Shown here: positions 21,831 through 42,656 of the stretch, piece after piece
Numbering within the stretch: the stretch's first letter is position 1
How the letters are laid out: each line of letters opens with the position of its first letter
Position numbers and translations under genes: made by a program
DNA from: a virus
Lineage: Duplodnaviria > Heunggongvirae > Uroviricota > Caudoviricetes
Strand: one strand, 5' to 3'
Length of the DNA stretch: 42,656 nucleotides
IMG/VR virus record: IMGVR_UViG_2718218168_000005
Notes under the pieces: generated by a model
The model's input: the letters and a program-made list of their open reading frames with translations, nothing else
Told to the model about the DNA's origin: nothing
Database searches by the model: none

Positions 21831-22101
21831 GATGTTACCGTAGTATGTGAGTATCCATCGAATAGACACCAAGCCAAAAAGCTCCCGAAGGAGCCTTCAT
21901 TTTCACTTTTTTAAATCCAACGACAGACGGCTGGCATTTAAGTATTGTGAAATATTATCAAATGTAATCATCATTGATTTACAAAAGATACATTTTGCCC
22001 CGAAAGGATTCATGTCAGAAACATCAAAAGATGATGTTCTATACTGGGAACCATGACAACACGGGCATCTAAAGTGAATATGGTTTGTAATATTGTCTAC
22101 C

Positions 22102-22314
22102 TCAAAGCGCCACTACATGAACAGCGGCAGGACCTTTAGGTCCGTTCTCAATACCAAATTCAACTTCCTGATTCTCAGTTAATGTTTTGAAATCGTTGCT
22201 CTGAATTGCTGAGAAATGGACAAACACATCTTTGCTGCCATCTTTCGGCGTGATGAAACCAAAACCTTTTTCAGGGTTAAACCATTTCACTAAACCAGTC
22301 ATTTTGTTAGACAT
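22102..22314 (-). CDS. cspI: Cold shock protein CspI-like (70 aa)
   Basis: CspA-family motifs ([20 protein letters not shown]); Qin position. Confidence 0.9.
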
Positions 22315-22676
22315 AATTATTACCTTTTGAAGAAATTAGCCCTTGGGCAGAATGGTCCGAAAAAAAATATCAGAGAGAAAAACCAACAAGGAAATCTCAA
22401 GAGGTACAAATAATAAAATTATAACAATGACTGCTTCAGATAAATTTGTAACAAACCAGAACACCATTAACGCATGATTAACCACCCATAGCAAGGATTA
22501 CTTTTGTAAAGAAAAACACAGCAATGAAAGAATAGCTTTATTTATTAATAAAACGTGTCATTCTGATTAAGACCTTTTATCTTACCCTTAAGATTTCAGG
22601 AATTTTGGCTCATGGAAGAGTCCTTTTTATTTAAATTTTACATTCCGCGATGTAAATGTTCCGATTTAATATTACC

Positions 22677-24703: not shown

Positions 24704-24984
24704 GAGATTGTGGTGCTTTTTGTGGGAGTCATCCACTTACGCACTTTGTTTTGCGATGCCAGCAGTTAGCTTCTGCTGTGAAACTATTCATGCAGCAAAC
24801 CTGCACTTCACCACAATGGTTAGCATACTTTTCCTGATTAAGATTTTGCCAAATATGCTGGCCATTGTTTCATGTATTGGACCTCCTTACTTTTTATTAA
24901 AGAGATCCAATATTCACTACTCTGTCCGTATCTCTACTCAGGCATCAGCCTTCTTCGTTATCGTATACAGACGAGCGATGAATT

Positions 24985-25200
24985 TTAATCAGTAATGATG
25001 ACATTTACTGCTGCAGGACCTTTAGCACCACTCTCTATAGAGAAGGTAACCTTTTGACCTTCAAATAAGGTTCGATAATTATCATTCTGAATCGCAGAAA
25101 AATGCACAAACACATCTTTACTACCATCAACAGGAGAAATAAAGCCGAAACCTTTATCAGCGTTAAACCATTTTACTAAACCAGTCATTTTATTTGACAT
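24985..25200 (-). CDS. cspB: Cold shock protein CspB-like (71 aa)
   Basis: CspA-family motifs; divergent from cspF. Confidence 0.9.
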
Positions 25201-25510
25201 TCTACATTCCTTAACTTGAGCCTTTCGGCATAAATGGTTTGCATAACAGAAACGACTTCGTACTTAATTGGAGAGACTCAAAGAAGGAATAAGTGAATAA
25301 CACCTGAAATGAGAACTGCTTTAGTAAACTACTTCGTATATCGTCTGTTCTTCAAACCGACGCAGTCATTAACTCATAGTTGAACATATGAAGCAATGTT
25401 TATTTTAGACATCCAGCCACCTTCAATCCTATCAAAAAAGTAGTTTTCTCCAGGAACGTGTGTATGGTGCACCAGGTTATCAGTATTAAGGAGTTTTTCT
25501 GTCCCCTAAA

Positions 25511-30817: not shown

Positions 30818-32158
30818 TCAATCTTTTTTATCGGGATCAGGCTTCTTTTTAGGTAACTTCGGGGGCTTAACTTGCTGATGACTTTGCGTTCGGCGCGTAA
30901 GCCAGGGATGGTCAGCTTTAGGTTTAACATAGTATTTTGAGCGTAAATCAATACGGGCATTATCCACTCGTTCATGGACACTCTTTTCATCATCCAGTGG
31001 TATAGGCTCCGGGCCATCAACATACTTTTCCCAGCCCAGCGCTTTCCCGTCATACAGAACGTTAATTTCACCGTCAAAGTTCTCGCATACAGTAACAACC
31101 GAATGCCTAAGTCGATATCCCCGGCTCTCACTGCGTACCTGAAACGCACTGCTTTTGTACTGGAAAGTGAGATTTTTAGACAGAACGCGCTTCGCCTGTA
31201 GGCTGAAGATATAACCCAGTTCCTCTTCAGAATGGTGCACATCAAGATGAGCATTATCAGTAGTACGAGGCGACGTAGCGAACCGGTTGTTATAGGCTTC
31301 AATAAAGGTCGGCAACCATGCATTTGCTGTTTCAATATCACTGATATTCTGAAGCCGCATTTCTTTGACCAGCCTGTCCTGTAGTGTCTGATTGGCGCGC
31401 TCTACCCGCCCTTTTGCCTGCGGGCTGTTGGCATGGATTGGCTCGATGCCCAGTGTCTTTATCGCACGAGTGAACTGGGTCAGCTCACCTTCCCGCTCTG
31501 GGTTATTTACCCTGAATATACTGTGTCTATCAGAGTAGAGAGCGAGCGGTACGCCATGATCATTAAGGTAACCCCGGAGGGTTTCCATGTAAGCCCGGGT
31601 TGTTTCAGCAGGCACAAAACGCAACGCCATCAACGCACTGGTGGCATCATCAATGAAAACGATCAGTGTACATCTGGGGCCTCGATTTTCAAACCAGTCA
31701 TGAGGTGAGCCATCAATCTGGATCAGTTCACCGTAAGATGGTCGTCGCATGCGGCGTTGATATATACGGGCAATTTTACGACGGCGTTCACGCCATAACC
31801 CCTCTTCTATCATCCACTTTCTGAGAGTTTCAACGGATAAAGATAAACCGTGTATCTCGCGCAATTTTTCGCACGCAAACGTAGGTCCAAAATCAGCGTA
31901 ACGGCCTTTGAGGAGTGAAATTACTGTTGCTCTGAATTCAGTAGAAAAGGAATTATTAGGACGCTTTCCACGTCGGTGGGAAACCAGACCAGAAGGCCCT
32001 TCATTTCTATACCGTTGCACCAGACGTTTAACCTGCCGAATAGAAATGCCAATGCGTGCCGCAGCTTGTTCCTGAGTAATATGTCGATTAATTGACTCCT
32101 GAATAATCTGAAGTCGGTGGAGTTCCTTATGACTCATCGTAACAGTCTCTTTGATCAT
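30818..32158 (-). CDS. DDE transposase with rve (integrase core) domain and N-terminal HTH, IS481/IS1202-like (446 aa)
   Basis: Motifs IQIDGSPHDW, FIDDATS and ANSPQAKGRVERANQTLQ form a DDE triad; element boundaries not identified. Confidence 0.75.
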   Translation of the reverse strand: MIKETVTMSHKELHRLQIIQESINRHITQEQAAARIGISIRQVKRLVQRYRNEGPSGLVSHRRGKRPNNSFSTEFRATVISLLKGRYADFGPTFACEKLREIHGLSLSVETLRKWMIEEGLWRERRRKIARIYQRRMRRPSYGELIQIDGSPHDWFENRGPRCTLIVFIDDATSALMALRFVPAETTRAYMETLRGYLNDHGVPLALYSDRHSIFRVNNPEREGELTQFTRAIKTLGIEPIHANSPQAKGRVERANQTLQDRLVKEMRLQNISDIETANAWLPTFIEAYNNRFATSPRTTDNAHLDVHHSEEELGYIFSLQAKRVLSKNLTFQYKSSAFQVRSESRGYRLRHSVVTVCENFDGEINVLYDGKALGWEKYVDGPEPIPLDDEKSVHERVDNARIDLRSKYYVKPKADHPWLTRRTQSHQQVKPPKLPKKKPDPDKKD

Positions 32159-32166
32159 GAAAAATC

Positions 32167-32186
32167 CCCCAGAGAATTGTCTGGGG
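32167..32186 (-). promoter_or_regulatory. Hairpin overlapping the transposase Shine-Dalgarno sequence
   Basis: Perfect 7-bp stem ccccaga/tctgggg with 6-nt loop; on the minus strand the GGGGGA SD lies within and next to the 3' arm. Confidence 0.4.
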
Positions 32187-32492
32187 ACATTTTAGAATGG
32201 TTCAAAGGGGACATTACAGCTTGGTGTTAACAATAGCCTGCTTCTCCGTGCCTTTCGGCACGTAAGAGGCTAACCTACATGTGTCTAGCATGAAATTGGC
32301 CTCAGATTAATGTTAAGCGTCTTGCAGGACGCGTAATGTTAACTGGGGCTTTTCTCTATCTGCCGTTGGTGTCCATGCCCGAGGCAGATAGCCTCAAGCA
32401 CCCGCAGTCATTCTACTTAACTAAGATTTCCCCGCAAACCGTTTTTGTCCAGCACAGTAAATATCCAACTAAACCAATGGAGTTCGCTGTAT

Positions 32493-32672
32493 TTACCGCC
32501 AGTATTCAATGCACATGACCGCCATGAACACCCCTAAAAAAAGGGCATTTATATATCCAAATATTAATATCAAAACATCAACTTTTTCCATATACCTTGC
32601 TGTGAAGATGATGGGCATACATGATGCGAACAACCAGAACGCAACAAACAAAAACTGCAATGCGTTTTTCAT
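32493..32672 (-). CDS. hypothetical small membrane protein (59 aa, two predicted TM segments)
   Basis: AGGAGG 5 nt upstream of ATG; MKNALQFLFVAFWLFASCMPIIFTARYMEKVDVLILIFGYINALFLGVFMAVMCIEYWR. Confidence 0.45.
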   Translation of the reverse strand: MKNALQFLFVAFWLFASCMPIIFTARYMEKVDVLILIFGYINALFLGVFMAVMCIEYWR

Positions 32673-32958
32673 TATTCCTCCTACAATCAATGTGCAATTA
32701 CATTTAAACACACCTCAATTTGGCCGGACATATAAATATCTAAACCAGAAAAAATCACTTACATAGCGTTACAAACTCTTTAGTCTAAAGGTTCATCGTA
32801 AAACATTCCCCATACTTATCAGTCCGTTCCGCGCCAGGTAGCTCATTGCCTTATCTGGCAACCTGTAATCAGGTTTCCGCTTTTTCAGTTGGCTGGTCGT
32901 TTAACCGACATAGTTAATCCATTAATCTAGTTGCCGGATGTTGGTGGATTTTCGCGTT

Positions 32959-33213
32959 TTAGTTGTTCATAAAAGTGCACAGCTTTAACCAGTTCTTCTG
33001 ATGTAACCGGGACTGGTGAGGCAGTGAATAAGGCCTGAATTTGATAGTTCGGCCTGTCGTTACAATCCTCTTTTTTCGGTACATATTTCCAGTCACCAGA
33101 CCACTACTTCCCCTGAAAGTCCGTAACGCTTTTTTCACGTAGCGATATCGCCATGCCACTGGTTTTGCTTGCCCCGCCGTTTCATGCCCTTCCTGATAAT
33201 TAATCTCGCTCAT
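32959..33213 (-). pseudogene. Possible disrupted gene: best-looking reading frame is interrupted by an in-frame TAG and flanked by A6 runs
   Basis: Hand translation in three frames; the frame ending ...PVPVTSEELVKAVHFYEQLKRENPPTSGN looks protein-like but is cut by TAG, and the ORF-track 84-aa frame looks low-complexity. Confidence 0.3.
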
Positions 33214-33823
33214 TCATCGCCCCACTCATCACAATATGCTTCGACCGGAGTTTTTCCCGCTTCATAGTCATCACGTTAGGATTCGACATCAGCAGCACTT
33301 CCACCGCGTAATTCACCATAGTCCATTAATAGTTCATCCCGCTCTTCAAAACTGATGTTATATTTAGCTGAACAAAAATCAGCCACTTTGTTCTTCCTCA
33401 TCGTCTTTTATTTCGTGGTATGAGTAATTGCAGTAGTTAAAGAAAATTTCTTATGCTCCGTCATGAATTTCATCAGGTGTTGCGTCATCGTCCACTTCGA
33501 ATACATCCTCAAAATCTCCACCAGCTATTTCCGTTTCAATAATAATTTTGAACTTTCGCATTTCACTACCGCCCTTTCGGGCGGCCTCCTGATGTTCTGA
33601 GGGTGCAGAAATCCATCCGGTTAAGGATTAAGTTTTATTTACAGAACTGAATTTAATTATTCAGATATACGTATCTGTAACCTTACGAATCTACTCACTG
33701 GATGCCTCTTTCATAAAAATAATCCAGTGGGTTTTATCGTTTTTTCCCTGTTCGTTGACAGATAACAGGCTTTCTATCTGTCAGTGCCAGAATCTGGCTT
33801 ACCGGTATTTGCGTTTCATTCCA

Positions 33824-34180
33824 TTAAAAAATCAGAACGCCGTGCGGCCTCAACACCCGAAAAGCTTCTTTAAATCTCTGTCGCAAATCATCACGCCAGG
33901 CATCTTTATTCAGCCGTCCATATTTCTTTCCCATCCAGGCGTTATCACCAACACGCTCAAGATGCGGAGGGTCTAATACAACCATCGAAAAAGATGCGTC
34001 TGCAAATGATAATGCACGAAAATCTGCGATAATGTCAGGGCTGATAATCAAGCGTCTCCCATTGCGTAATGTGTATCCTTCTTTTCTGATATCGCTGAAT
34101 ATCGCCCGTTTGTCAGACTTATCGAACCAGAACATGCGGCTGCCACAGCACATATCAAGAATGGTTGCCGGTGCACTCAC
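33824..34180 (-). CDS. SAM-dependent DNA methyltransferase fragment (118 aa; motif I-like and DPPH motif IV, no target-recognition domain)
   Basis: ILDMCCGSRMF (motif I-like) and VVLDPPH (motif IV-like); ORF stops at a T6 run and no extension exists in any frame. Confidence 0.5.
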   Translation of the reverse strand: MSAPATILDMCCGSRMFWFDKSDKRAIFSDIRKEGYTLRNGRRLIISPDIIADFRALSFADASFSMVVLDPPHLERVGDNAWMGKKYGRLNKDAWRDDLRQRFKEAFRVLRPHGVLIF

Positions 34181-36107: not shown

Positions 36108-36318
36108 TGTTCAACCGCCCCGCCCGCTTCGTCTTACGATATTCATCATAAACTTTGGGATCATACTGAAGCTCCCCGCCAGATGCCTCCTGTAGACGCA
36201 TCGCGCGACCTTCAGGAACCAGTATCCCCCAAGCAGCAACACTTGCCAGCCTCACTCCTGCGGCATTGGCAAGCTTTGTTTTGCTGCCAAAAAAAGTAAT
36301 TGCGTCAACTTTAAGCAT
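36091..36318 (-). CDS. dicC: DicC, Cro-like regulator (75 aa from MLKVDAITFFG)
   Basis: Matches recalled DicC; GAGGGGGG SD upstream of the ATG at 36318; divergent from dicA. Confidence 0.85.
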   Translation of the reverse strand: MLKVDAITFFGSKTKLANAAGVRLASVAAWGILVPEGRAMRLQEASGGELQYDPKVYDEYRKTKRAGRLNNENHS

Positions 36319-36332
36319 CAAAGCCCCCCTCT

Positions 36333-36350
36333 TGTTAGACTTTTCTAACA
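36333..36350. promoter_or_regulatory. Operator palindrome TGTTAGA-N4-TCTAACA in the dicC/dicA intergenic region
   Basis: Perfect 7-bp inverted repeat with 4-bp spacer just upstream of the dicC start. Confidence 0.6.
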
Positions 36351-36399
36351 TTATTGTGCGCGGGATACCTAAGTCAAGAAAAATTAGAATTACCTAACT

Positions 36400-36807
36400 A
36401 TGGATACAAGAACCCTGGGCCAGCGAGTTCTGGCGCGACGAAAAGAATTACGCTTAACACAACGAGAAGCCGCGCGCCTCGCTGGAGTTGCTCACGTCAC
36501 AATTTCACAATGGGAAAGAGACGAAACCCAGCCAGTCGGAAAACGATTGTTTGCTTTAGCGGATGCTCTGAAGTGCTCACCTACATGGCTAATGTTTGGT
36601 GACGAAGACAAGGCACCAGTGCCTGCACAAGAACTTCATGTGGAAACAGAGCTAACTCCCAACCACAAAGAATTGATCGAATTATTCGATGCTCTTCCAT
36701 CTTCCGAGCAGGAAGCCTTGCTGTCTGAAATGCGCGCAAGAGTAGAAAACTTCAACAAACTCTTCGAAGAAATGCTTAAAGCGCGTAAAAATAAATCAAT
36801 AAAATAA
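36400..36807 (+). CDS. dicA: DicA, CI-like HTH repressor (135 aa)
   Basis: Matches recalled DicA (MDTRTLGQRVLARRKELRLTQREAARLAGVAHVTISQWERDETQP...). Confidence 0.92.
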   Translation: MDTRTLGQRVLARRKELRLTQREAARLAGVAHVTISQWERDETQPVGKRLFALADALKCSPTWLMFGDEDKAPVPAQELHVETELTPNHKELIELFDALPSSEQEALLSEMRARVENFNKLFEEMLKARKNKSIK

Positions 36808-36842
36808 CATTCTTTTCAAGTGATTAGTTGCGCCCACCCTTT

Positions 36843-36862
36843 TTGTTAGATCAATCTAACAA
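36843..36862. promoter_or_regulatory. Second operator palindrome TTGTTAGAT-CA-ATCTAACAA between dicA and ydfA
   Basis: Perfect 9-bp inverted repeat with the same TGTTAGA-N4-TCTAACA core as 36333..36350. Confidence 0.6.
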
Positions 36863-36879
36863 AAAACACTTGCCTCTCA

Positions 36880-36897
36880 TGTTAGGTTATTCTAAAT
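36880..36897. promoter_or_regulatory. Third, degenerate operator-like site TGTTAGG-N4-TCTAAAT
   Basis: One mismatch per half-site relative to the other two sites. Confidence 0.35.
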
Positions 36898-36975
36898 TAT
36901 TTTCCATCAAGACACCGCACGGTGTTCTCAGCAAACAGTTCCGCTACCCCGGCGTTAAGGGGAAATGAGGTCAGC

Positions 36976-37131
36976 ATGGATACTATCGATCTTGGCAACA
37001 GCGAATCTCTGGTATGTGGCGTGTTCCCCAACCAGGACGGTACGTTCACCGCGATGACGTATACCAAAAGCAAAACGTTTAAAACCGAAAATGGTGCCCG
37101 TCGCTGGCTGGAAAGAAACCCAGGTGAGTGA
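36976..37131 (+). CDS. ydfA: YdfA-like small protein (51 aa)
   Basis: MDTIDLGNSESLVCGVFPNQDG...; GAGG SD upstream of the ATG at 36976. Confidence 0.75.
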   Translation: MDTIDLGNSESLVCGVFPNQDGTFTAMTYTKSKTFKTENGARRWLERNPGE

Positions 37132-37132
37132 T

Positions 37133-37261
37133 ATGGATTTCGACACAATCATGGAAAAGGCTTACGAAGAATACTTCGAAGGTCTTGCCGACGGCGAAGA
37201 AGCTCTCAGCTTCAACGAATTTAAACAGGCGCTTTCCAGTTCGGCAAAATCTAACGGCTGA
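37133..37261 (+). CDS. ydfB: YdfB-like small acidic protein (42 aa)
   Basis: Hand-translated MDFDTIMEKAYEEYFEGLADGEEALSFNEFKQALSSSAKSNG; starts 1 nt after the ydfA stop. Confidence 0.7.
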   Translation: MDFDTIMEKAYEEYFEGLADGEEALSFNEFKQALSSSAKSNG

Positions 37262-37290
37262 TAAGCGAAACAGCACCGCGAGGAATCAGT

Positions 37291-37509
37291 ATGCAGAAAC
37301 GAGAACCCGTCATCATCGCGCCAGACTATACCGATGATGAACTTTATGAGTGGATGCGCCAGAAAATTAATGCAGCGCAGGATTTGAAATGGGCCAATGA
37401 AACCAGGGCTAAGCAGGCTGAAAATCTGTCCGCTCTGGAGCAGGATATCACCAATCTGGAAAAAGCAGCGGCATTAAGCATTGCCAGAATGATTACATAC
37501 CCGCGTTAG
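37291..37509 (+). CDS. ydfC: YdfC-like protein (72 aa)
   Basis: ORF-track protein; position in the dicB operon. Confidence 0.7.
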   Translation: MQKREPVIIAPDYTDDELYEWMRQKINAAQDLKWANETRAKQAENLSALEQDITNLEKAAALSIARMITYPR

Positions 37510-37849
37510 TAGCTAATCAACAAAGCTAAGGTTAGTAATTAAGGAGTTCTCCACGGGTGAGGTGGAGTGCGTGCGCCGGACACGGGTGAGCATCCGGCAC
37601 TGACAGTTTACTGAAAGGATATTTCCCTGAAAAGTCAGACCATAACGCGAAAGCGCACGGCGAGGTAGCTGGTTCATAGATAGCCTGTCGTTAAATTTTC
37701 GTCGACCGTGCGCTTCCGGTTGTGGCAACCCGCGAAATGGCGCGGCGGTAAGTATGGCGGGGTTATTCCTTCCCCGTTGAGGACACCGGGTTGTCAGGTT
37801 GACCATACGCTTAAGTGACAACCCCGCTGCAACGCCCTCTGTTATCAAT

Positions 37850-37906
37850 TTTCTGGTGACGTTTGGCGGTATCAGTTTTACTCCGTGACTGCTCTGCCGC
37901 CCTTTT
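37850..37906 (+). ncRNA. dicF: DicF small regulatory RNA (ftsZ-targeting sRNA) with intrinsic terminator
   Basis: Sequence TTTCTGGTGACGTTTGGCGGTATCAGTTTTACTCCGTGACTGCTCTGCCGCCCTTTTT matches recalled DicF; ends are approximate. Confidence 0.85.
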
Positions 37907-38076
37907 TAAAGTGAATTTTGTGATGTGGTGAATGCGGCTGAGCGCACGCGGAACAGTTAAAACCAAAAACAGTGTTATGGGTGGATTCTCTGTATCCGGC
38001 GTTAATTGTTAACTGGTTAACGTCACCTGGAGGCACCAGGCACTGCATCACAAAATTCATTGTTGAGGACGCGATA

Positions 38077-38265
38077 ATGAAAACGTTATTACCAAACGTT
38101 AATACGTCTGAAGGTTGTTTTGAAATTGGTGTCACTATCAGTAACCCAGTATTTACTGAAGATGCCATTAACAAGAGAAAACAAGAACGGGAGCTATTAA
38201 ATAAAATATGCATTGTTTCAATGCTGGCTCGTTTACGTCTGATGCCAAAAGGATGTGCACAATGA
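38077..38265 (+). CDS. dicB: DicB cell-division inhibitor (62 aa)
   Basis: MKTLLPNVNTSEGCFEIGVTISNPVF... matches recalled DicB. Confidence 0.9.
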   Translation: MKTLLPNVNTSEGCFEIGVTISNPVFTEDAINKRKQERELLNKICIVSMLARLRLMPKGCAQ

Positions 38266-38453
38266 ATTCAGCATTTGTGCTTGTTCTGACAGTTTTTCTT
38301 GTTTCCGGAGAGCCAGTTGATATTGCAGTCAGTGTGCACAGGACAATGCAGGAGTGTATGACTGCAGCAACCGAACAGAAAATTCCCGGTAACTGTTACC
38401 CGGTCGATAAAGTTATTCACCAGGATAATATCGAAATCCCGGCAGGTCTTTAA
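38262..38453 (+). CDS. ydfD: YdfD-like small membrane/lysis protein (63 aa)
   Basis: ATGA overlap with the dicB stop; N-terminal hydrophobic segment. Confidence 0.8.
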   Translation: MNSAFVLVLTVFLVSGEPVDIAVSVHRTMQECMTAATEQKIPGNCYPVDKVIHQDNIEIPAGL

Positions 38454-38545
38454 AACAGTTCCGTAATAAATATCCGGTTTCATTCTTATATGCCAGCAAT
38501 GGCAGGGATTTGTTCATCCTTAAATCTGTCATGAGGTTAAAACAA

Positions 38546-41017
38546 ATGAGTAAAGTCTTTATTTGCGCCGCTATTCCTGACGAACTGGCAACAAGGGAAG
38601 AAGGCGCTGTGGCTGTAGCCACAGCCATTGAAGCTGGCGACGAACGCCGTGCTCGAGCAAAATTTCACTGGCAATTCCTGGAACATTATCCGGCTGCTCA
38701 GGACTGCGCTTATAAATTTATTGTCTGCGAGGATAAACCTGGCATACCCCGCCCTGCCCTCGATTCATGGGATGCTGAATATATGCAGGAAAACCGCTGG
38801 GATGAGGAGTCTGCTTCTTTTGTCCCGGTTGAGACTGAATCCGATCCGATGAACGTCACTTTTGACAAGCTGGCCCCTGAAGTACAGAACGCTGTCATGG
38901 TTAAGTTCGACACATGTGAAAACATCACCGTTGATATGGTTATTAGCGCACAGGAATTGTTGCAGGAAGACATGGCAACATTCGACGGACATATCGTTGA
39001 AGCGTTGATGAAAATGCCAGAAGTTAACGCCATGTATCCGGAGCTTAAGTTGCACGCCATTGGGTGGGTTAAGCATAAATGTATTCCTGGTGCTAAATGG
39101 CCCGAAATTCAGGCAGAGATGCGCATCTGGAAAAAACGTCGCGAAGGTGAACGCAAGGAAACCGGAAAATACACGTCTGTTGTTGATCTCGCCCGCGCCA
39201 GAGCCAATCAACAGTACACTGAAAATTCAACAGGAAAAATCAGCCCGGTCATTGCTGCCATTCATCGCGAATACAAGCAGACATGGAAAACACTGGATGA
39301 CGAACTGGCCTACGCTCTCTGGCCTGGTGATGTGGATGCCGGAAACATTGACGGCAGCATCCATCGCTGGGCAAAAAAAGAAGTTATCGACAACGACCGC
39401 GAAGACTGGAAGCGTATCTCGGCATCAATGCGCAAACAGCCTGATGCCCTTCGCTACGACCGCCAAACTATTTTTGGCCTTGTCCGTGAGCGTCCGATCG
39501 ACATTCACAAAGATCCCGTAGCACTGAACAAATATATCTGCGAATACCTGACGACAAAGGGCGTGTTTGAGAATGAAGAAACAGACCTGGGCACTGTTGA
39601 TGTTCTCCAGTCATCAGAAACACAAACTGATGCAGTGGAAACTGAGGTATCTGATATCCCAAAAAATGAAACCGCGCCGGAAGCTGAACCATCTGTAGAG
39701 CGTGAGGGGCCGTTCTATTTCCTCTTCGCAGATAAGGACGGAGAAAAATACGGTCGCGCAAACAAACTCTCTGGTCTGGATAAGGCACTGGCTGCTGGCG
39801 CCACTGAAATCACAAAAGAAGAATATTTTGCCCGAAAAAATGGCACATACACGGGCTTACCGCAAAATGTAGATACCGCTGAAGATTCAGAACAACCAGA
39901 GCCGATAAAAGTTACCGCTGACGAAGTAAACAAAATTATGCAGGCAGCCAATATCAGCCAGCCTGACGCCGATAAGTTGCTTGCTGCATCACGTGGTGAA
40001 TTTGTTGAAGGGATTAGTGACCCGAATGATCCGAAATGGGTTAAGGGGCTCCAGACCCGCGATTCTGTGAACCAGAACCAGCATGAATCGGAACGGAACT
40101 ACCAAAAAGCGGAACAAAACAGTCCAAATGCGTTACAAAACGAGCCAGAAACGAAACAGCCTGAACCAGTAGCGCAACAGGAAGTGGAAAAAGTCTGCAC
40201 CGCCTGCGGTCAGACCGGCGGCGGCAACTGCCCTGATTGTGGCGCGGTGATGGGCGACGCAACATACCAAGAAACATTCGATGAAGAGTATCAGGTTGAA
40301 GTTCAGGAAGATGATCCGGAGGAAATGGAAGGCGCTGAACATCCACACAAGGAGAACACTGGCGGCAATCAGCATCACAATAGCGATAATGAAACTGGCG
40401 AGACGGCAGATCACCCAATTAAGGTGAACGGTCATCACGAAATCACATCCACCAGCAGGACGTGTGACCATCTAATGATCGACCTTGAAACCATGGGAAA
40501 AAATCCTGATGCCCCGATCATCTCAATAGGTGCAATATTTTTCGATCCGCAAACCGGAGATATGGGACCGGAATTTAGTAAGACTATCGATCTGGAAACT
40601 GCTGGCGGAGTCATTGATCGGGACACCATTAAATGGTGGCTTAAGCAATCACGCGAAGCGCAATCTGCCATTATGACCGATGAAATCCCGTTAGATGATG
40701 CACTGTTACAATTGCGAGAATTTATCGACGAAAACTCCGGTGAATTTTTTGTTCAGGTTTGGGGAAATGGAGCCAACTTCGACAACACGATTTTGCGCCG
40801 TTCATACGAACGGCAGGGGATCCCCTGCCCGTGGCGTTACTACAACGATCGCGATGTACGCACAATCGTTGAGCTGGGGAAAGCCATAGACTTCGATGCC
40901 AGAACGGCTATTCCATTCGAAGGTGAGCGCCATAATGCACTTGATGACGCCCGTTACCAGGCAAAATACGTTTCAGTTATCTGGCAAAAACTGATCCCGA
41001 GTCAGGCTGATTCTTAA
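38546..41017 (+). CDS. ydfE: Large prophage protein (823 aa): N-terminal domain of unknown function, CxxC-x10-CxxC zinc ribbon, C-terminal DEDDh (DnaQ-like) 3'-5' exonuclease domain; intact counterpart of the K-12 ydfE fragment
   Basis: Exo motifs DLET (I), WGNGANFD (II), HNALDDARY (III); GAGG upstream of the ATG at 38546; the ORF-track frame begins at a TTG at 38510. Confidence 0.8.
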   Translation: MSKVFICAAIPDELATREEGAVAVATAIEAGDERRARAKFHWQFLEHYPAAQDCAYKFIVCEDKPGIPRPALDSWDAEYMQENRWDEESASFVPVETESDPMNVTFDKLAPEVQNAVMVKFDTCENITVDMVISAQELLQEDMATFDGHIVEALMKMPEVNAMYPELKLHAIGWVKHKCIPGAKWPEIQAEMRIWKKRREGERKETGKYTSVVDLARARANQQYTENSTGKISPVIAAIHREYKQTWKTLDDELAYALWPGDVDAGNIDGSIHRWAKKEVIDNDREDWKRISASMRKQPDALRYDRQTIFGLVRERPIDIHKDPVALNKYICEYLTTKGVFENEETDLGTVDVLQSSETQTDAVETEVSDIPKNETAPEAEPSVEREGPFYFLFADKDGEKYGRANKLSGLDKALAAGATEITKEEYFARKNGTYTGLPQNVDTAEDSEQPEPIKVTADEVNKIMQAANISQPDADKLLAASRGEFVEGISDPNDPKWVKGLQTRDSVNQNQHESERNYQKAEQNSPNALQNEPETKQPEPVAQQEVEKVCTACGQTGGGNCPDCGAVMGDATYQETFDEEYQVEVQEDDPEEMEGAEHPHKENTGGNQHHNSDNETGETADHPIKVNGHHEITSTSRTCDHLMIDLETMGKNPDAPIISIGAIFFDPQTGDMGPEFSKTIDLETAGGVIDRDTIKWWLKQSREAQSAIMTDEIPLDDALLQLREFIDENSGEFFVQVWGNGANFDNTILRRSYERQGIPCPWRYYNDRDVRTIVELGKAIDFDARTAIPFEGERHNALDDARYQAKYVSVIWQKLIPSQADS

Positions 41018-41089
41018 TGTTCAACTGTCGCCGGTTGTGACTGGTATTCTGCAACCGGCGCTCGTCTGATGTAAGAGATAAAGAAATCG

Positions 41090-41341
41090 ATGAGCGAAGT
41101 AATCATGATTGTCTCTCCCGGCAAATGGGTATCCGAAGAGCAGTTAATTGCGCTGAAAGGAATAAAAAAAGGTACGTTAAAAAAGGCCCGGGAAAAATCG
41201 TTTATGGAAGGAAGGGAATATAAGCATGTCGCTCATGACGGTATGCCATGGGATAACAGTCCATGCTTTTACAACCTGGAAGAAATTGATCGCTGGATTG
41301 AGCGCCAGGCATCAGCGAGACCAAGACGTCATCTTACTTGA
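41090..41341 (+). CDS. Excisionase-like protein (83 aa)
   Basis: Small protein immediately upstream of the integrase gene; start uncertain (41090 or 41105). Confidence 0.55.
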   Translation: MSEVIMIVSPGKWVSEEQLIALKGIKKGTLKKAREKSFMEGREYKHVAHDGMPWDNSPCFYNLEEIDRWIERQASARPRRHLT

Positions 41342-41375
41342 CTAAAAGTCACACTAACTAATGAGAGAAGTTGAA

Positions 41376-42656
41376 ATGAAATATCCGACAGGCGTGGAAA
41401 ACCATGGAGGGAAATTACGTATCTGGTTTGTTTATAAAGACGTAAGAGTCAGGGAAAATCTGGGGGTTCCTGACACAGCAAAAAACAGGCGCGTTGCAGG
41501 TGAACTACGCTCCTCTGTTTGTTACGCAATAAAAACTGGTGTTTTCGACTATGCAAAACAGTTTCCCTCCTCACGCAATCTGGAAAAATTTGGTGAGGCC
41601 CGACAAGATTTAACCATAAAAGAACTGGCTGAAAAATTTCTGGCGCTGAAAGAAACTGAAGTCGCCAAAACATCACTCAACACATACCGTGCCGTCATCA
41701 AAAATATCCTGAGCATAATCGGTGAAAAAAATCTTGCCTCATCGATTAATAAAGAAAAATTACTGGAGGTTCGTAAAGAGTTACTGACTGGATACCAGAT
41801 CCCCAAAAGTAACTATATTGTTACACAACCAGGGAGATCGGCTGTAACTGTAAATAATTACATGACAAATCTTAACGCCGTGTTCCAGTTTGGTGTTGAT
41901 AACGGTTACCTGGCAGATAATCCGTTTAAGGGGATCTCGCCATTAAAGGAATCAAGAACCATTCCGGATCCTCTTTCGCGGGAAGAATTTATCCGTCTTA
42001 TCGATGCGTGCAGAAATCAGCAAGCAAAAAATTTATGGTGTGTTTCTGTTTATACTGGAGTTCGCCTTGGTGAGCTGTGTGCACTTGGATGGGAGGACAT
42101 AGATCTGAAAAATGGAACAATGATGATCAGGAGAAATTTAGCAAAAGACCGTTTCACGGTACCAAAAACACAGGCGGGAACCAATCGGGTCATTCATCTT
42201 ATTAAGCCAGCAATCGACGCTCTCCGGAGTCAGATGACATTAACGAGACTGAGCAAAGAGCATATCATTGATGTTCACCTCAGAGAGTATGGCAGAACAG
42301 AAAAACAAAAATGCACCTTTGTTTTTCAACCTGAAGTGTCAGCGAGAGTAAAAAATTATGGTGACCATTTTACCGTTGACTCAATAAGGCAGATGTGGGA
42401 CGCAGCGATAAAACGTGCCGGACTCCGCCATCGAAAATCATATCAGTCGAGACATACTTATGCCTGCTGGTCGCTGACAGCTGGTGCTAACCCGGCATTT
42501 ATAGCAAACCAGATGGGCCATGCAGATGCGCAAATGGTATTTCAGGTATACGGAAAATGGATGTCTGAAAACAATAATGCACAGGTAGCTTTGTTAAATA
42601 CACAGTTAAGCGAGTTTGCCCCAACCATGCCCCATAACGAAGCAATGAAAAATTAA
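41376..42656 (+). CDS. intQ: Tyrosine integrase, lambda Int family (426 aa), apparently intact
   Basis: C-terminal catalytic region with R (GVRLGE), H-x-x-R (SRHTYACW) and HADAQMVFQVYGKW containing the catalytic Tyr; stop codon at 42654..42656. Confidence 0.85.
   Translation: MKYPTGVENHGGKLRIWFVYKDVRVRENLGVPDTAKNRRVAGELRSSVCYAIKTGVFDYAKQFPSSRNLEKFGEARQDLTIKELAEKFLALKETEVAKTSLNTYRAVIKNILSIIGEKNLASSINKEKLLEVRKELLTGYQIPKSNYIVTQPGRSAVTVNNYMTNLNAVFQFGVDNGYLADNPFKGISPLKESRTIPDPLSREEFIRLIDACRNQQAKNLWCVSVYTGVRLGELCALGWEDIDLKNGTMMIRRNLAKDRFTVPKTQAGTNRVIHLIKPAIDALRSQMTLTRLSKEHIIDVHLREYGRTEKQKCTFVFQPEVSARVKNYGDHFTVDSIRQMWDAAIKRAGLRHRKSYQSRHTYACWSLTAGANPAFIANQMGHADAQMVFQVYGKWMSENNNAQVALLNTQLSEFAPTMPHNEAMKN

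Follow-up and report, generated by a model that had tools for sequence, protein, structure and literature searches.

The window, by which we mean the whole 42,656-nucleotide stretch analysed here, carries a Qin-like lambdoid prophage in which the genes run dicA, ydfA, ydfB, ydfC, DicF, dicB, ydfD, ORF, xis and int. The ORF, a ydfE-type gene, is thus the last of the early-left operon before xis/int, and no recT, bet, erf or other gene for a single-strand annealing protein (SSAP) lies beside it, xis coming straight after. Its ATG is preceded by a GAGG 9 nt upstream, and PGAP annotates the same 823-aa CDS in genomes of 100% identity (WP_000048327.1, “3'-5' exonuclease” or “exonuclease”); a mechanical ORF call from the TTG at 38510 gives 835 aa. 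The match to Pfam family PF16473 (E = 2e-67), low dN/dS and presence in 3536 of 5426 complete Escherichia coli genomes rule out a chance ORF. A scan of positions 36300-41500, including the gap between ydfD and the ORF, found no promoter-like site on the + strand and so offers no evidence for a promoter of its own, and terminator-like sites in the scanned early-left region are no more frequent than in shuffled sequence. The operon is repressed by DicA, and the distal position of the ORF, together with the null promoter scan, means that it should be silent in the lysogen. The DicF sRNA is processed out of the same operon transcript.

Table 1. Features of the ydfE-type gene and its surroundings (window positions; aa, residues of the 823-aa protein).
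Feature	Position	Strand	Basis or remark
Whole CDS, intact ydfE-type putative exonuclease gene	38546..41017	+	823 aa + stop; full-length phrog_2082 match
YdfE-type head, aa 1-204: alpha/beta subdomain (1-100) and helical subdomain (105-204)	38546..39157	+	K-12 YdfE identical to aa 256
Helical domain, aa 245-340, common to RecE (about 278-350) and all family classes	39278..39565	+	
Beta-hairpin/helix mini-domain, aa 388-432, GPFYF...GRANKL...EI..EEY	39707..39841	+	
aa 470-627, ~80% identical to RecE 450-592: LLAASRGEFVEGISDPNDPKWVKG motif, zinc ribbon, acidic linker	39953..40426	+	BLASTP vs K-12 RecE
CxxC-x7-CxxC zinc ribbon, aa 551-565, also in RecE (CNAC...CPDC)	40196..40240	+	
Domain-swap junction, aa 623-641	40413..40468	+	blastn vs recE, epsilon34 gene 34 and phage 1720a-02 gene
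Predicted DEDDh 3'-5' exonuclease domain, aa 641-823, PF16473 (Rv2179c/DexA-like)	40466..41014	+	Profile match, alignment
dicB and ydfD, directly upstream, same early-left operon	38077..38453	+	As annotated by PGAP in identical DNA
xis (41090-41341) and int (41376-42656), directly downstream	41090..42656	+	PGAP annotation

Residues 1-256 of the protein are 100% identical to K-12 YdfE, and a 94%-identical cluster representative (P0001) has precomputed matches to PF27430 (YdfE_N) and PF27432 (YdfE_C), which place the 823-aa protein, by sequence, in the YdfE family. In K-12, ydfE (b1577) is a pseudogene of the Qin prophage that sits at the same locus beside rspB, behind the same upstream genes as here. 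An IS2E element cuts it after codon 256 and the rest is gone, including xis and part of int. The gene in the window is thus the intact form of the K-12 pseudogene. The original prediction, which had read the ORF as an intact 823-aa counterpart of an IS-disrupted K-12 ydfE in the slot between dicB and xis/int, and had allowed that it might turn out to be simply a full-length RecE, agrees with all of this except for that last proviso, which is taken up below. At the level of annotation the gene is already known, under names as varied as “exodeoxyribonuclease VIII”, “exonuclease” and “3'-5' exoribonuclease”; the first is wrong, since the RecE nuclease domain is absent from the protein. Published work on ydfE, on PF16473 and on Rv2179c-type phage proteins yielded no functional study of the 823-aa protein, and the fact that K-12 holds only a broken copy may explain why.

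RecE (exonuclease VIII) of the K-12 Rac prophage occupies the same operon position, distal in the early-left operon and ahead of xis/int. Identity as RecE can nonetheless be rejected: the protein scores 281 bits where the NF007259 equivalog requires 1269, and the match is limited to residues 246-623 (model positions 271-600 of 877), and recT does not follow. There is no Pfam match to the PD-(D/E)XK nuclease domain (PF12684, DUF3799; RecE 606-866), BLASTP homology stopping at RecE residue 592, nor to the Exonuc_VIII head (PF06630), residues 1-260 forming an alternative YdfE-type head. What the two proteins share is the central non-catalytic region of RecE with its zinc ribbon and acidic linker. 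In BLASTP against K-12 RecE, residues 262-627 are homologous to RecE 278-592, and homology to recE at the DNA level spans window positions 39970-40412. This makes the protein a RecE-scaffold chimera rather than an unrelated protein. Between disordered acidic linkers in the scaffold lies the mini-domain of residues 388-432, predicted with pLDDT 80-89, which contains 8 of the 17 invariant columns in an alignment of 125 homologues (G388, P389, F390, Y391, R404, K407, E421 and I422).

The C-terminal domain scores 226.5 bits with PF16473, whose gathering cut-off is 27 (E = 2.4e-67), over positions 2-177 of 177 in the profile. Its Exo I, Exo II and Exo III motifs (DxE, D and H-x4-D) are complete, and the catalytic D646, E648, D746, H796 and D801 are invariant with respect to T4 DexA (D7/E9/D119/H186/D191) and two stand-alone phage homologues. 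The original prediction of a DEDDh nuclease at the C-terminus is therefore upheld for about the last 180 residues, with the motifs DLET (646-649), WGNGANFD (739-746) and HNALDDARY (796-804) at the places claimed. It fared less well further upstream. The zinc ribbon that it described as CxxC-x10-CxxC is present, with a spacer of x7 (C551-x2-C554-x7-C562-x2-C565), and of the roughly 600 residues that it left unassignable some 365 (262-627, ribbon included) are homologous to the RecE non-catalytic region, at ~80% identity over 470-627.

T4 DexA (exonuclease A; PDB 8KEL/8KEN), a member of the same Pfam family, was the sole chain found when PDB sequences were searched with phmmer at E <= 1, and hence the only solved structure (E = 1.5e-6). 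Identity to the domain here is just 26%, and DexA is a stand-alone protein of 227 aa with extra loops, from a virulent phage. The match to 8KEL suggests an RNase H-like DnaQ fold for residues 641-823, and it is family membership that points to DNA as the substrate and to 3'-5' polarity, the opposite of the 5'-3' polarity of RecE. The family takes its name from Rv2179c, a 3' exoribonuclease of Mycobacterium tuberculosis that is chromosomal and stand-alone, with RNA reported as its substrate, and too distant to be found by the same phmmer search.

Much closer are the stand-alone nucleases of lambdoid phages, gene 34 of epsilon34 and AGR48394 of phage 1720a-02, which show 56-60% identity across the whole domain. 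These are single-domain proteins of ~180-190 aa, whereas the domain here stands behind a 640-residue RecE/YdfE scaffold. They begin MNHLM(I/V)DLET, exactly at the domain start, where the window encodes CDHLMIDLET. RecE homology stops at 40412 and homology to the stand-alone DEDDh genes begins at 40469-40473; as one ends and the other begins within 40413-40468, the gene is an in-frame nuclease-domain swap on a RecE/YdfE scaffold. Gene 34 of epsilon34 lies within a Rec module (Rad52-family SSAP, SSB, DEDDh, Abc2). Stand-alone DnaQ-type nucleases are one Rec-module nuclease type in lambdoid phages, and their genes were described in 2025 both in Rec modules and near int (PMC12315714). Unlike gene 34, the ydfE-type ORF has no neighbouring SSAP, SSB or anti-RecBCD gene.

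Among relatives of the protein, one of two N-terminal heads is paired with one of three tails, namely a PD-(D/E)XK nuclease, the DEDDh domain or a Rad52-fold domain. The E. albertii protein P0332 exemplifies the third class, with a putative Rad52-type domain in its C-terminal 270 residues. The same DEDDh tail type occurs on two different heads, chimeras with a RecE head and a DEDDh tail are known, and sister proteins with a RecE-type nuclease do match PF12684. That three interchangeable tails are carried on two heads argues that DNA recombination is the business of the YdfE/RecE scaffold. No SSAP gene adjoins any DEDDh-tailed version of the scaffold, and the DEDDh segment is joined to a K-12-type recT in none of the 5426 genomes by megablast, a search that divergent recT alleles would escape.

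What would such a protein do? Its most likely role, we infer, is to trim DNA ends as a 3'-5' exonuclease in the early programme of the phage. The fuller reading, to which we give an even chance, is of a modular early-left protein in which a RecE/YdfE scaffold targets a captured DEDDh domain to DNA ends and works alongside host RecBCD/RecA. The scaffold comprises the first ~625 residues, non-catalytic and shared with RecE (head, helical domain, mini-domain, linker motif and zinc ribbon). The last ~180 residues are a complete DEDDh exonuclease domain of the stand-alone type, which belongs to the T4 DexA family and was taken up in frame, and its capture displaced the PD-(D/E)XK 5'-3' nuclease of RecE together with the recT that follows it. 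Expressed upon prophage induction, the protein would act as a Mg2+-dependent 3'-5' DNA exonuclease and shorten the 3' ends of phage DNA or of DNA undergoing recombination, whether these are tails, flaps or non-homologous ends. Its scaffold would bring the DEDDh domain to the same partner or substrate to which sister proteins bring the RecE nuclease or the Rad52-like annealase. Since phage SSAP and anti-RecBCD genes are absent, the partnership would be with host RecBCD/RecA instead of a RecET-type single-strand-annealing pair. The case bears on how DNA ends are processed in lambdoid phages that lack an annealase. It also bears on RecE, whose non-catalytic two-thirds are needed for efficient linear-linear recombineering, an assay in which full-length RecE outperforms RecE588; one scaffold bearing three recombination effectors offers a concrete way into the old problem of what that part of RecE does.

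A wider generalisation is, in our judgement, unlikely to hold: that the YdfE/RecE N-terminal region of ~450-620 residues is a general delivery module for interchangeable recombination effectors in Enterobacterales prophages. Its cargo may be a PD-(D/E)XK 5'-3' nuclease, a DEDDh 3'-5' nuclease or a Rad52-fold annealase, its target one common partner or DNA structure, and its docking elements the mini-domain of residues 388-432 and the G-x-F-S-I-D-G-L-type linker motif. The DEDDh version may then let the many lambdoid prophages without a Rec module process 3' ends by an SSAP-independent route, in cooperation with host RecBCD/Chi.

Could the nuclease instead serve in defence? A prophage-borne defence or superinfection-exclusion enzyme of the HREX/EcD kind would degrade incoming modified (e.g. 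5hmC) phage DNA from its ends and thereby protect the host cell, whether lysogenic or induced. The E. coli protein EcD (189 aa, stand-alone) belongs to PF16473, is 38% identical to the domain here (E = 2e-37) and is itself located in the early region of a P2-like prophage; it digests T4 DNA, shields cells from T4, and is reported to be specific for 5hmC-DNA, with a defence role (PMC12153337). The ydfE-type gene has also stayed intact, with purifying selection acting on it, in 65% of genomes and in many prophages that have partly decayed, as would suit such a function. However, the HREX/EcD signature combines loss of the tetramerisation residue D90 with retention of W152/D169-type residues, and the domain here shows the reverse. 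The Asp whose loss reportedly makes EcD modification-specific, Ala in EcD, is kept (DexA D90, here D718), and the 5hmC-recognition residues proposed for DexA are not (W152 is Y766 and D169 is A780, in an alignment that is uncertain near D169). The sole match in PADLOC-DB 2.0 is a weak one to a generic Cas-associated DEDDh model (23.4 bits, E = 1.8e-5). A gene that should be silent in the lysogen is poorly placed for exclusion, and defence accounts neither for the RecE scaffold nor for the sister proteins in which such a scaffold bears a RecE nuclease or Rad52-like domain. We consider this reading improbable.

Less probable again is a scavenging nuclease that, after induction, turns fragments of host or competitor DNA into nucleotides for phage replication and has no part in recombination. 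One of the two roles described for T4 DexA, whose structure is the only solved one in the family to match, is the scavenging of host DNA. The fusion to a RecE scaffold and the occurrence of stand-alone homologues inside Rec modules favour end processing over bulk degradation, and scavenging would require a degradation of host DNA that temperate lambdoid phages are not known to carry out. The frequent database name raises another candidate, a 3'-5' exoribonuclease that processes or turns over host or phage RNA, such as DicF or other early-operon RNAs. The naming of the Pfam family after Rv2179c, a weak RNase_T match (PF00929, E = 4e-4, below cut-off) and the origin of DicF in this very transcript speak for it. 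Against these stand the deposition of DexA, the one PDB match, as an exodeoxyribonuclease, the action on DNA of both assayed phage or prophage family members, and the sister fusions on the same scaffold, all to DNA-recombination domains. We hold an RNA substrate to be very unlikely.

The distribution of the gene bears on whether it has a selected function at all. At a coverage of at least 80%, a ydfE-type gene is contained in the 3536 genomes mentioned above (~65%), frequently in multiple copies per genome, which puts it among the commonest E. coli prophage genes. The inducible Escherichia phage PhiR42_1 carries a version that is 99.9% identical. The earlier supposition that a DEDDh exonuclease would be unusual in this slot is contradicted by that frequency and by the similar genes described in 2025 (PMC12315714). 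A full-length homologue search yielded near-identical E. coli proteins without diversity; comparison with diverged alleles gives the head a dN/dS of 0.07-0.10 and the DEDDh domain one of 0.14-0.28, so that every folded domain falls within 0.07-0.28 and the gene is under purifying selection. dS is 0.02-0.09 in the DEDDh segment, far below the 0.15 to >2 of the N-terminal parts, which indicates recent exchange. That exchange, the high mosaicism of lambdoid genomes and the disrupted copies in K-12 (IS2) and ETEC1746 (frameshift) are what one would expect of a functionless by-product, in which illegitimate or homologous exchange replaced the recE nuclease and recT and the new segment hitch-hiked without selected activity, yet we give this the least credence of all, given the constraint on every folded domain, the five of five catalytic residues intact, the recurrence of one DEDDh tail type on two heads, and an ORF that is intact in most of the 3536 genomes and in isolated phages as well.

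The 823-aa ydfE-type protein carries one strong Pfam domain, PF16473 (Rv2179c-like; aa 642-813, E = 2e-67), and the only solved structures matched by sequence search are those of T4 DexA (8KEL/8KEN). The three DEDDh motifs of the original prediction are borne out at aa 646-649, 739-746 and 796-804, with D646, E648, D746, H796 and D801 invariant in an alignment with T4 DexA and two stand-alone phage homologues, epsilon34 gene 34 and a phage 1720a-02 protein. The zinc ribbon is likewise present, with a spacer of seven residues instead of ten (C551xxC554-x7-C562xxC565). The NCBIfam RecE equivalog matches only within aa 246-623 (281 bits against a cut-off of 1269), and BLASTP pairs aa 262-627 with residues 278-592 of K-12 RecE, ending where the RecE nuclease starts; identity is ~80% over the last 160 aligned residues, zinc ribbon and acidic linker included. 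Homology to recE DNA stops at 40412, that to stand-alone DEDDh genes starts at 40469-40473, and the start of the stand-alone proteins, MNHLM(I/V)DLET, corresponds to CDHLMIDLET in the ORF. A complete stand-alone-type DEDDh ORF is therefore fused in frame to a RecE-type linker.

An AF2 model of aa 1-470 (125-sequence alignment, mean pLDDT 77) divides this region into subdomains separated by disordered acidic linkers. Ahead of the effector domain, the disordered linker (aa 470-495; window 39953-40030) holds a short conserved motif that may serve in docking. Most classes have it as G-x-F-S-[IV]-[DE]-G-L, the ORF and RecE as AASRGEFVEGISDPNDPKW, and equivalent linkers occur in homologues P0126, P0134, P0154, P0169, P0184, P0198, P0212, P0226, P0239, P0250 and P0264.

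Out of 1.84 billion clusters at 50% identity, only 248 representatives match the non-nuclease part (aa 1-640) at E <= 1e-3, and all named organisms among the retrieved relatives are Enterobacterales species. Mapping ORF and RecE segments onto long representatives reveals two head types, YdfE (ORF aa 1-260) and RecE (PF06630), freely combined with tails. DEDDh tails occur in the ORF and in P0128, whose RecE head is 100% identical to K-12 and whose tail is 99% identical to ours; PDDEXK/DUF3799 tails occur in K-12 RecE and, behind a YdfE head, in P0131, P0198 and P0226. A third tail of ~270 residues, for which no Pfam match was found, is probably an annealase, and these probable Rad52-fold fusions are widely mislabelled exonuclease VIII. 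One scaffold therefore carries any of three effectors, namely nucleases of 5'-3' or 3'-5' type or a probable annealase.

The window consists of an almost complete, Qin-like lambdoid prophage that has integrated beside rspB in E. coli. PGAP annotation of 100%-identical DNA runs through tail, head, lysis and Q genes and a partly decayed replication region to dicC/dicA, ydfA, ydfB, ydfC, dicB, ydfD, the ORF, xis and int, confirming the predicted intact 823-aa frame between dicB and xis/int (WP_000048327.1, 'exonuclease' or '3'-5' exonuclease'); a mechanical ORF list has a longer version with a TTG start at 38510. K-12 ydfE, described beforehand as an IS-disrupted fragment, is indeed a pseudogene cut by IS2E, its remaining part 100% identical to ORF aa 1-256. 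In the partly decayed replication and nin region (window ~31090-34140; 8522-11569 in L041), a SAM-dependent methyltransferase gene and a hypothetical gene both carry frameshifts and an ISEsa1 transposase is truncated, so the prophage may not be fully functional despite intact exonuclease, xis and int.

In each of the eight loci of DEDDh type that were examined, the early-left genes end with this one, ahead of xis/int, and no annealase (SSAP) gene is present; these loci occupy at least four integration sites (rspB/ynfA, ompW, potC, yccA), with either head type. A chimeric megablast query, which divergent recT alleles would escape, found the DEDDh segment adjoining K-12 recT in 0 of 5426 genomes. 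Of 5426 complete E. coli genomes, 3536 cover at least 80% of the full-length gene, some of them at as many as 10 places, and isolated phages also carry the gene. In the DEDDh segment (window 40466-41017), dS against loci L004, L007, L008, L039 and L040 is 0.02-0.09, several-fold to more than 20-fold lower than in the N-terminal regions of those genes. Such low values indicate that the tail has recently moved between prophages and head types, presumably through recombination within the RecE-like segment that they share, aa 470-640.

What might such a fusion do? The best explanation, which is given an even chance, is that a RecE/YdfE scaffold carries an exonuclease acting 3'-5' on DNA as part of the phage's early programme, arising from an in-frame swap that would have taken out the RecE nuclease and recT. 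The architecture, catalytic residues, junction, context, frequency and selection are seen directly in the sequences. The product would trim 3' ends during recombination-dependent DNA transactions. This role, the DNA substrate and the polarity are suggested by the alternative tails, which are recombination domains, by the part of DexA in intron homing (PMC12153337) and by stand-alone homologues in Rec modules; that of epsilon34 comprises a Rad52-family SSAP (PF04098), SSB, DEDDh (56% identical to ours) and Abc2. Since the prophage lacks an SSAP or anti-RecBCD function and is Chi-rich (7 GCTGGTGG octamers in the window against 1.5 expected from shuffles, 0 of 100 shuffles reaching 7), the product would cooperate with host RecBCD/RecA and would not act in a RecET-like pair. 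Lambdoids that lack a Rec module and are rich in Chi sites form a large class (Zheng et al. 2025, PMC12315714).

Could it instead be a defence nuclease of HREX type? The structure of T4 DexA is solved, and its E. coli homologue EcD breaks down DNA containing 5hmC and gives protection from T4 (Kang et al. 2025, PMC12153337). EcD is 38% identical to the ORF's DEDDh domain. DexA D90 is kept (D718), and W152 and D169 align with Y766 and A780; the residues tied by those authors to 5hmC recognition or dimer state appear to have no match in the ORF. With the specificity residues not kept, the gene in a repressed operon where no promoter-like site of its own was found, and a weak, generic PADLOC match, an HREX-like role is unlikely. 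A DexA-like scavenger is less probable again, and an exoribonuclease slightly more doubtful than that. Least credible is a selectively neutral mosaic relic, given purifying selection: comparison with alleles of 89-90% identity gives dN/dS values of 0.07-0.10 in the head, ~0.2 in the middle domain, 0.3-0.4 in linkers and 0.14-0.28 in DEDDh.

The gene was already annotated in RefSeq, PHROGs (phrog_2082) and Pfam (YdfE_N, YdfE_C), and literature searches found no studies of YdfE itself. That lambdoid Rec modules contain DnaQ-type nucleases or have them nearby is also published: DnaQ-like 3'-5' enzymes are one of four nuclease types there, sporadic DnaQ-type genes near int were excluded from module membership, and 'RecE-2' proteins have no recognisable nuclease domain (PMC12315714). 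Added here are the exact chimeric make-up (RecE scaffold plus captured stand-alone DEDDh ORF), the head/tail repertoire with its probable Rad52-fold fusion, the lack of an SSAP partner throughout and the very high prevalence. The main worth lies in the way in that the gene offers to what the N-terminal region of RecE does.

The primers in PMC12153337, a text in which the word 'prophage' is absent, trace EcD to a 189-aa PF16473 protein in IMG/VR contigs. It lies in the early operon of a P2-like prophage (int, cox-like ... DUF4761 ... EcD, Dam methyltransferase, DUF4406), and the 'bacterial' anti-T4 exonuclease is therefore prophage-borne.

Features of the window, the ORF product (aa) and the EcD locus
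Feature	Position	Strand	Basis or remark
ORF	38546-41017	+	ATG start, GAGG 9 nt upstream
Alpha/beta subdomain	aa 1-100		AF2 model
Helical subdomain	aa 105-204		AF2 model
Second helical domain	aa 245-340		AF2 model
Small, highly conserved mini-domain	aa 388-432		AF2 model
DicF	37851-37902	+	Rfam, above gathering score
Two cspA thermoregulators, upstream of prophage csp genes	22075-22460, 24938-25361	-	Rfam, above gathering score
sok antitoxin RNA, hokD locus	32232-32403	-	Rfam, above gathering score
Chi octamers	23279, 27258, 27310, 27843, 27900, 33518, 40449		
EcD gene	L033 6401-6970	-	loci L012, L017, L027, L028, L030, L033
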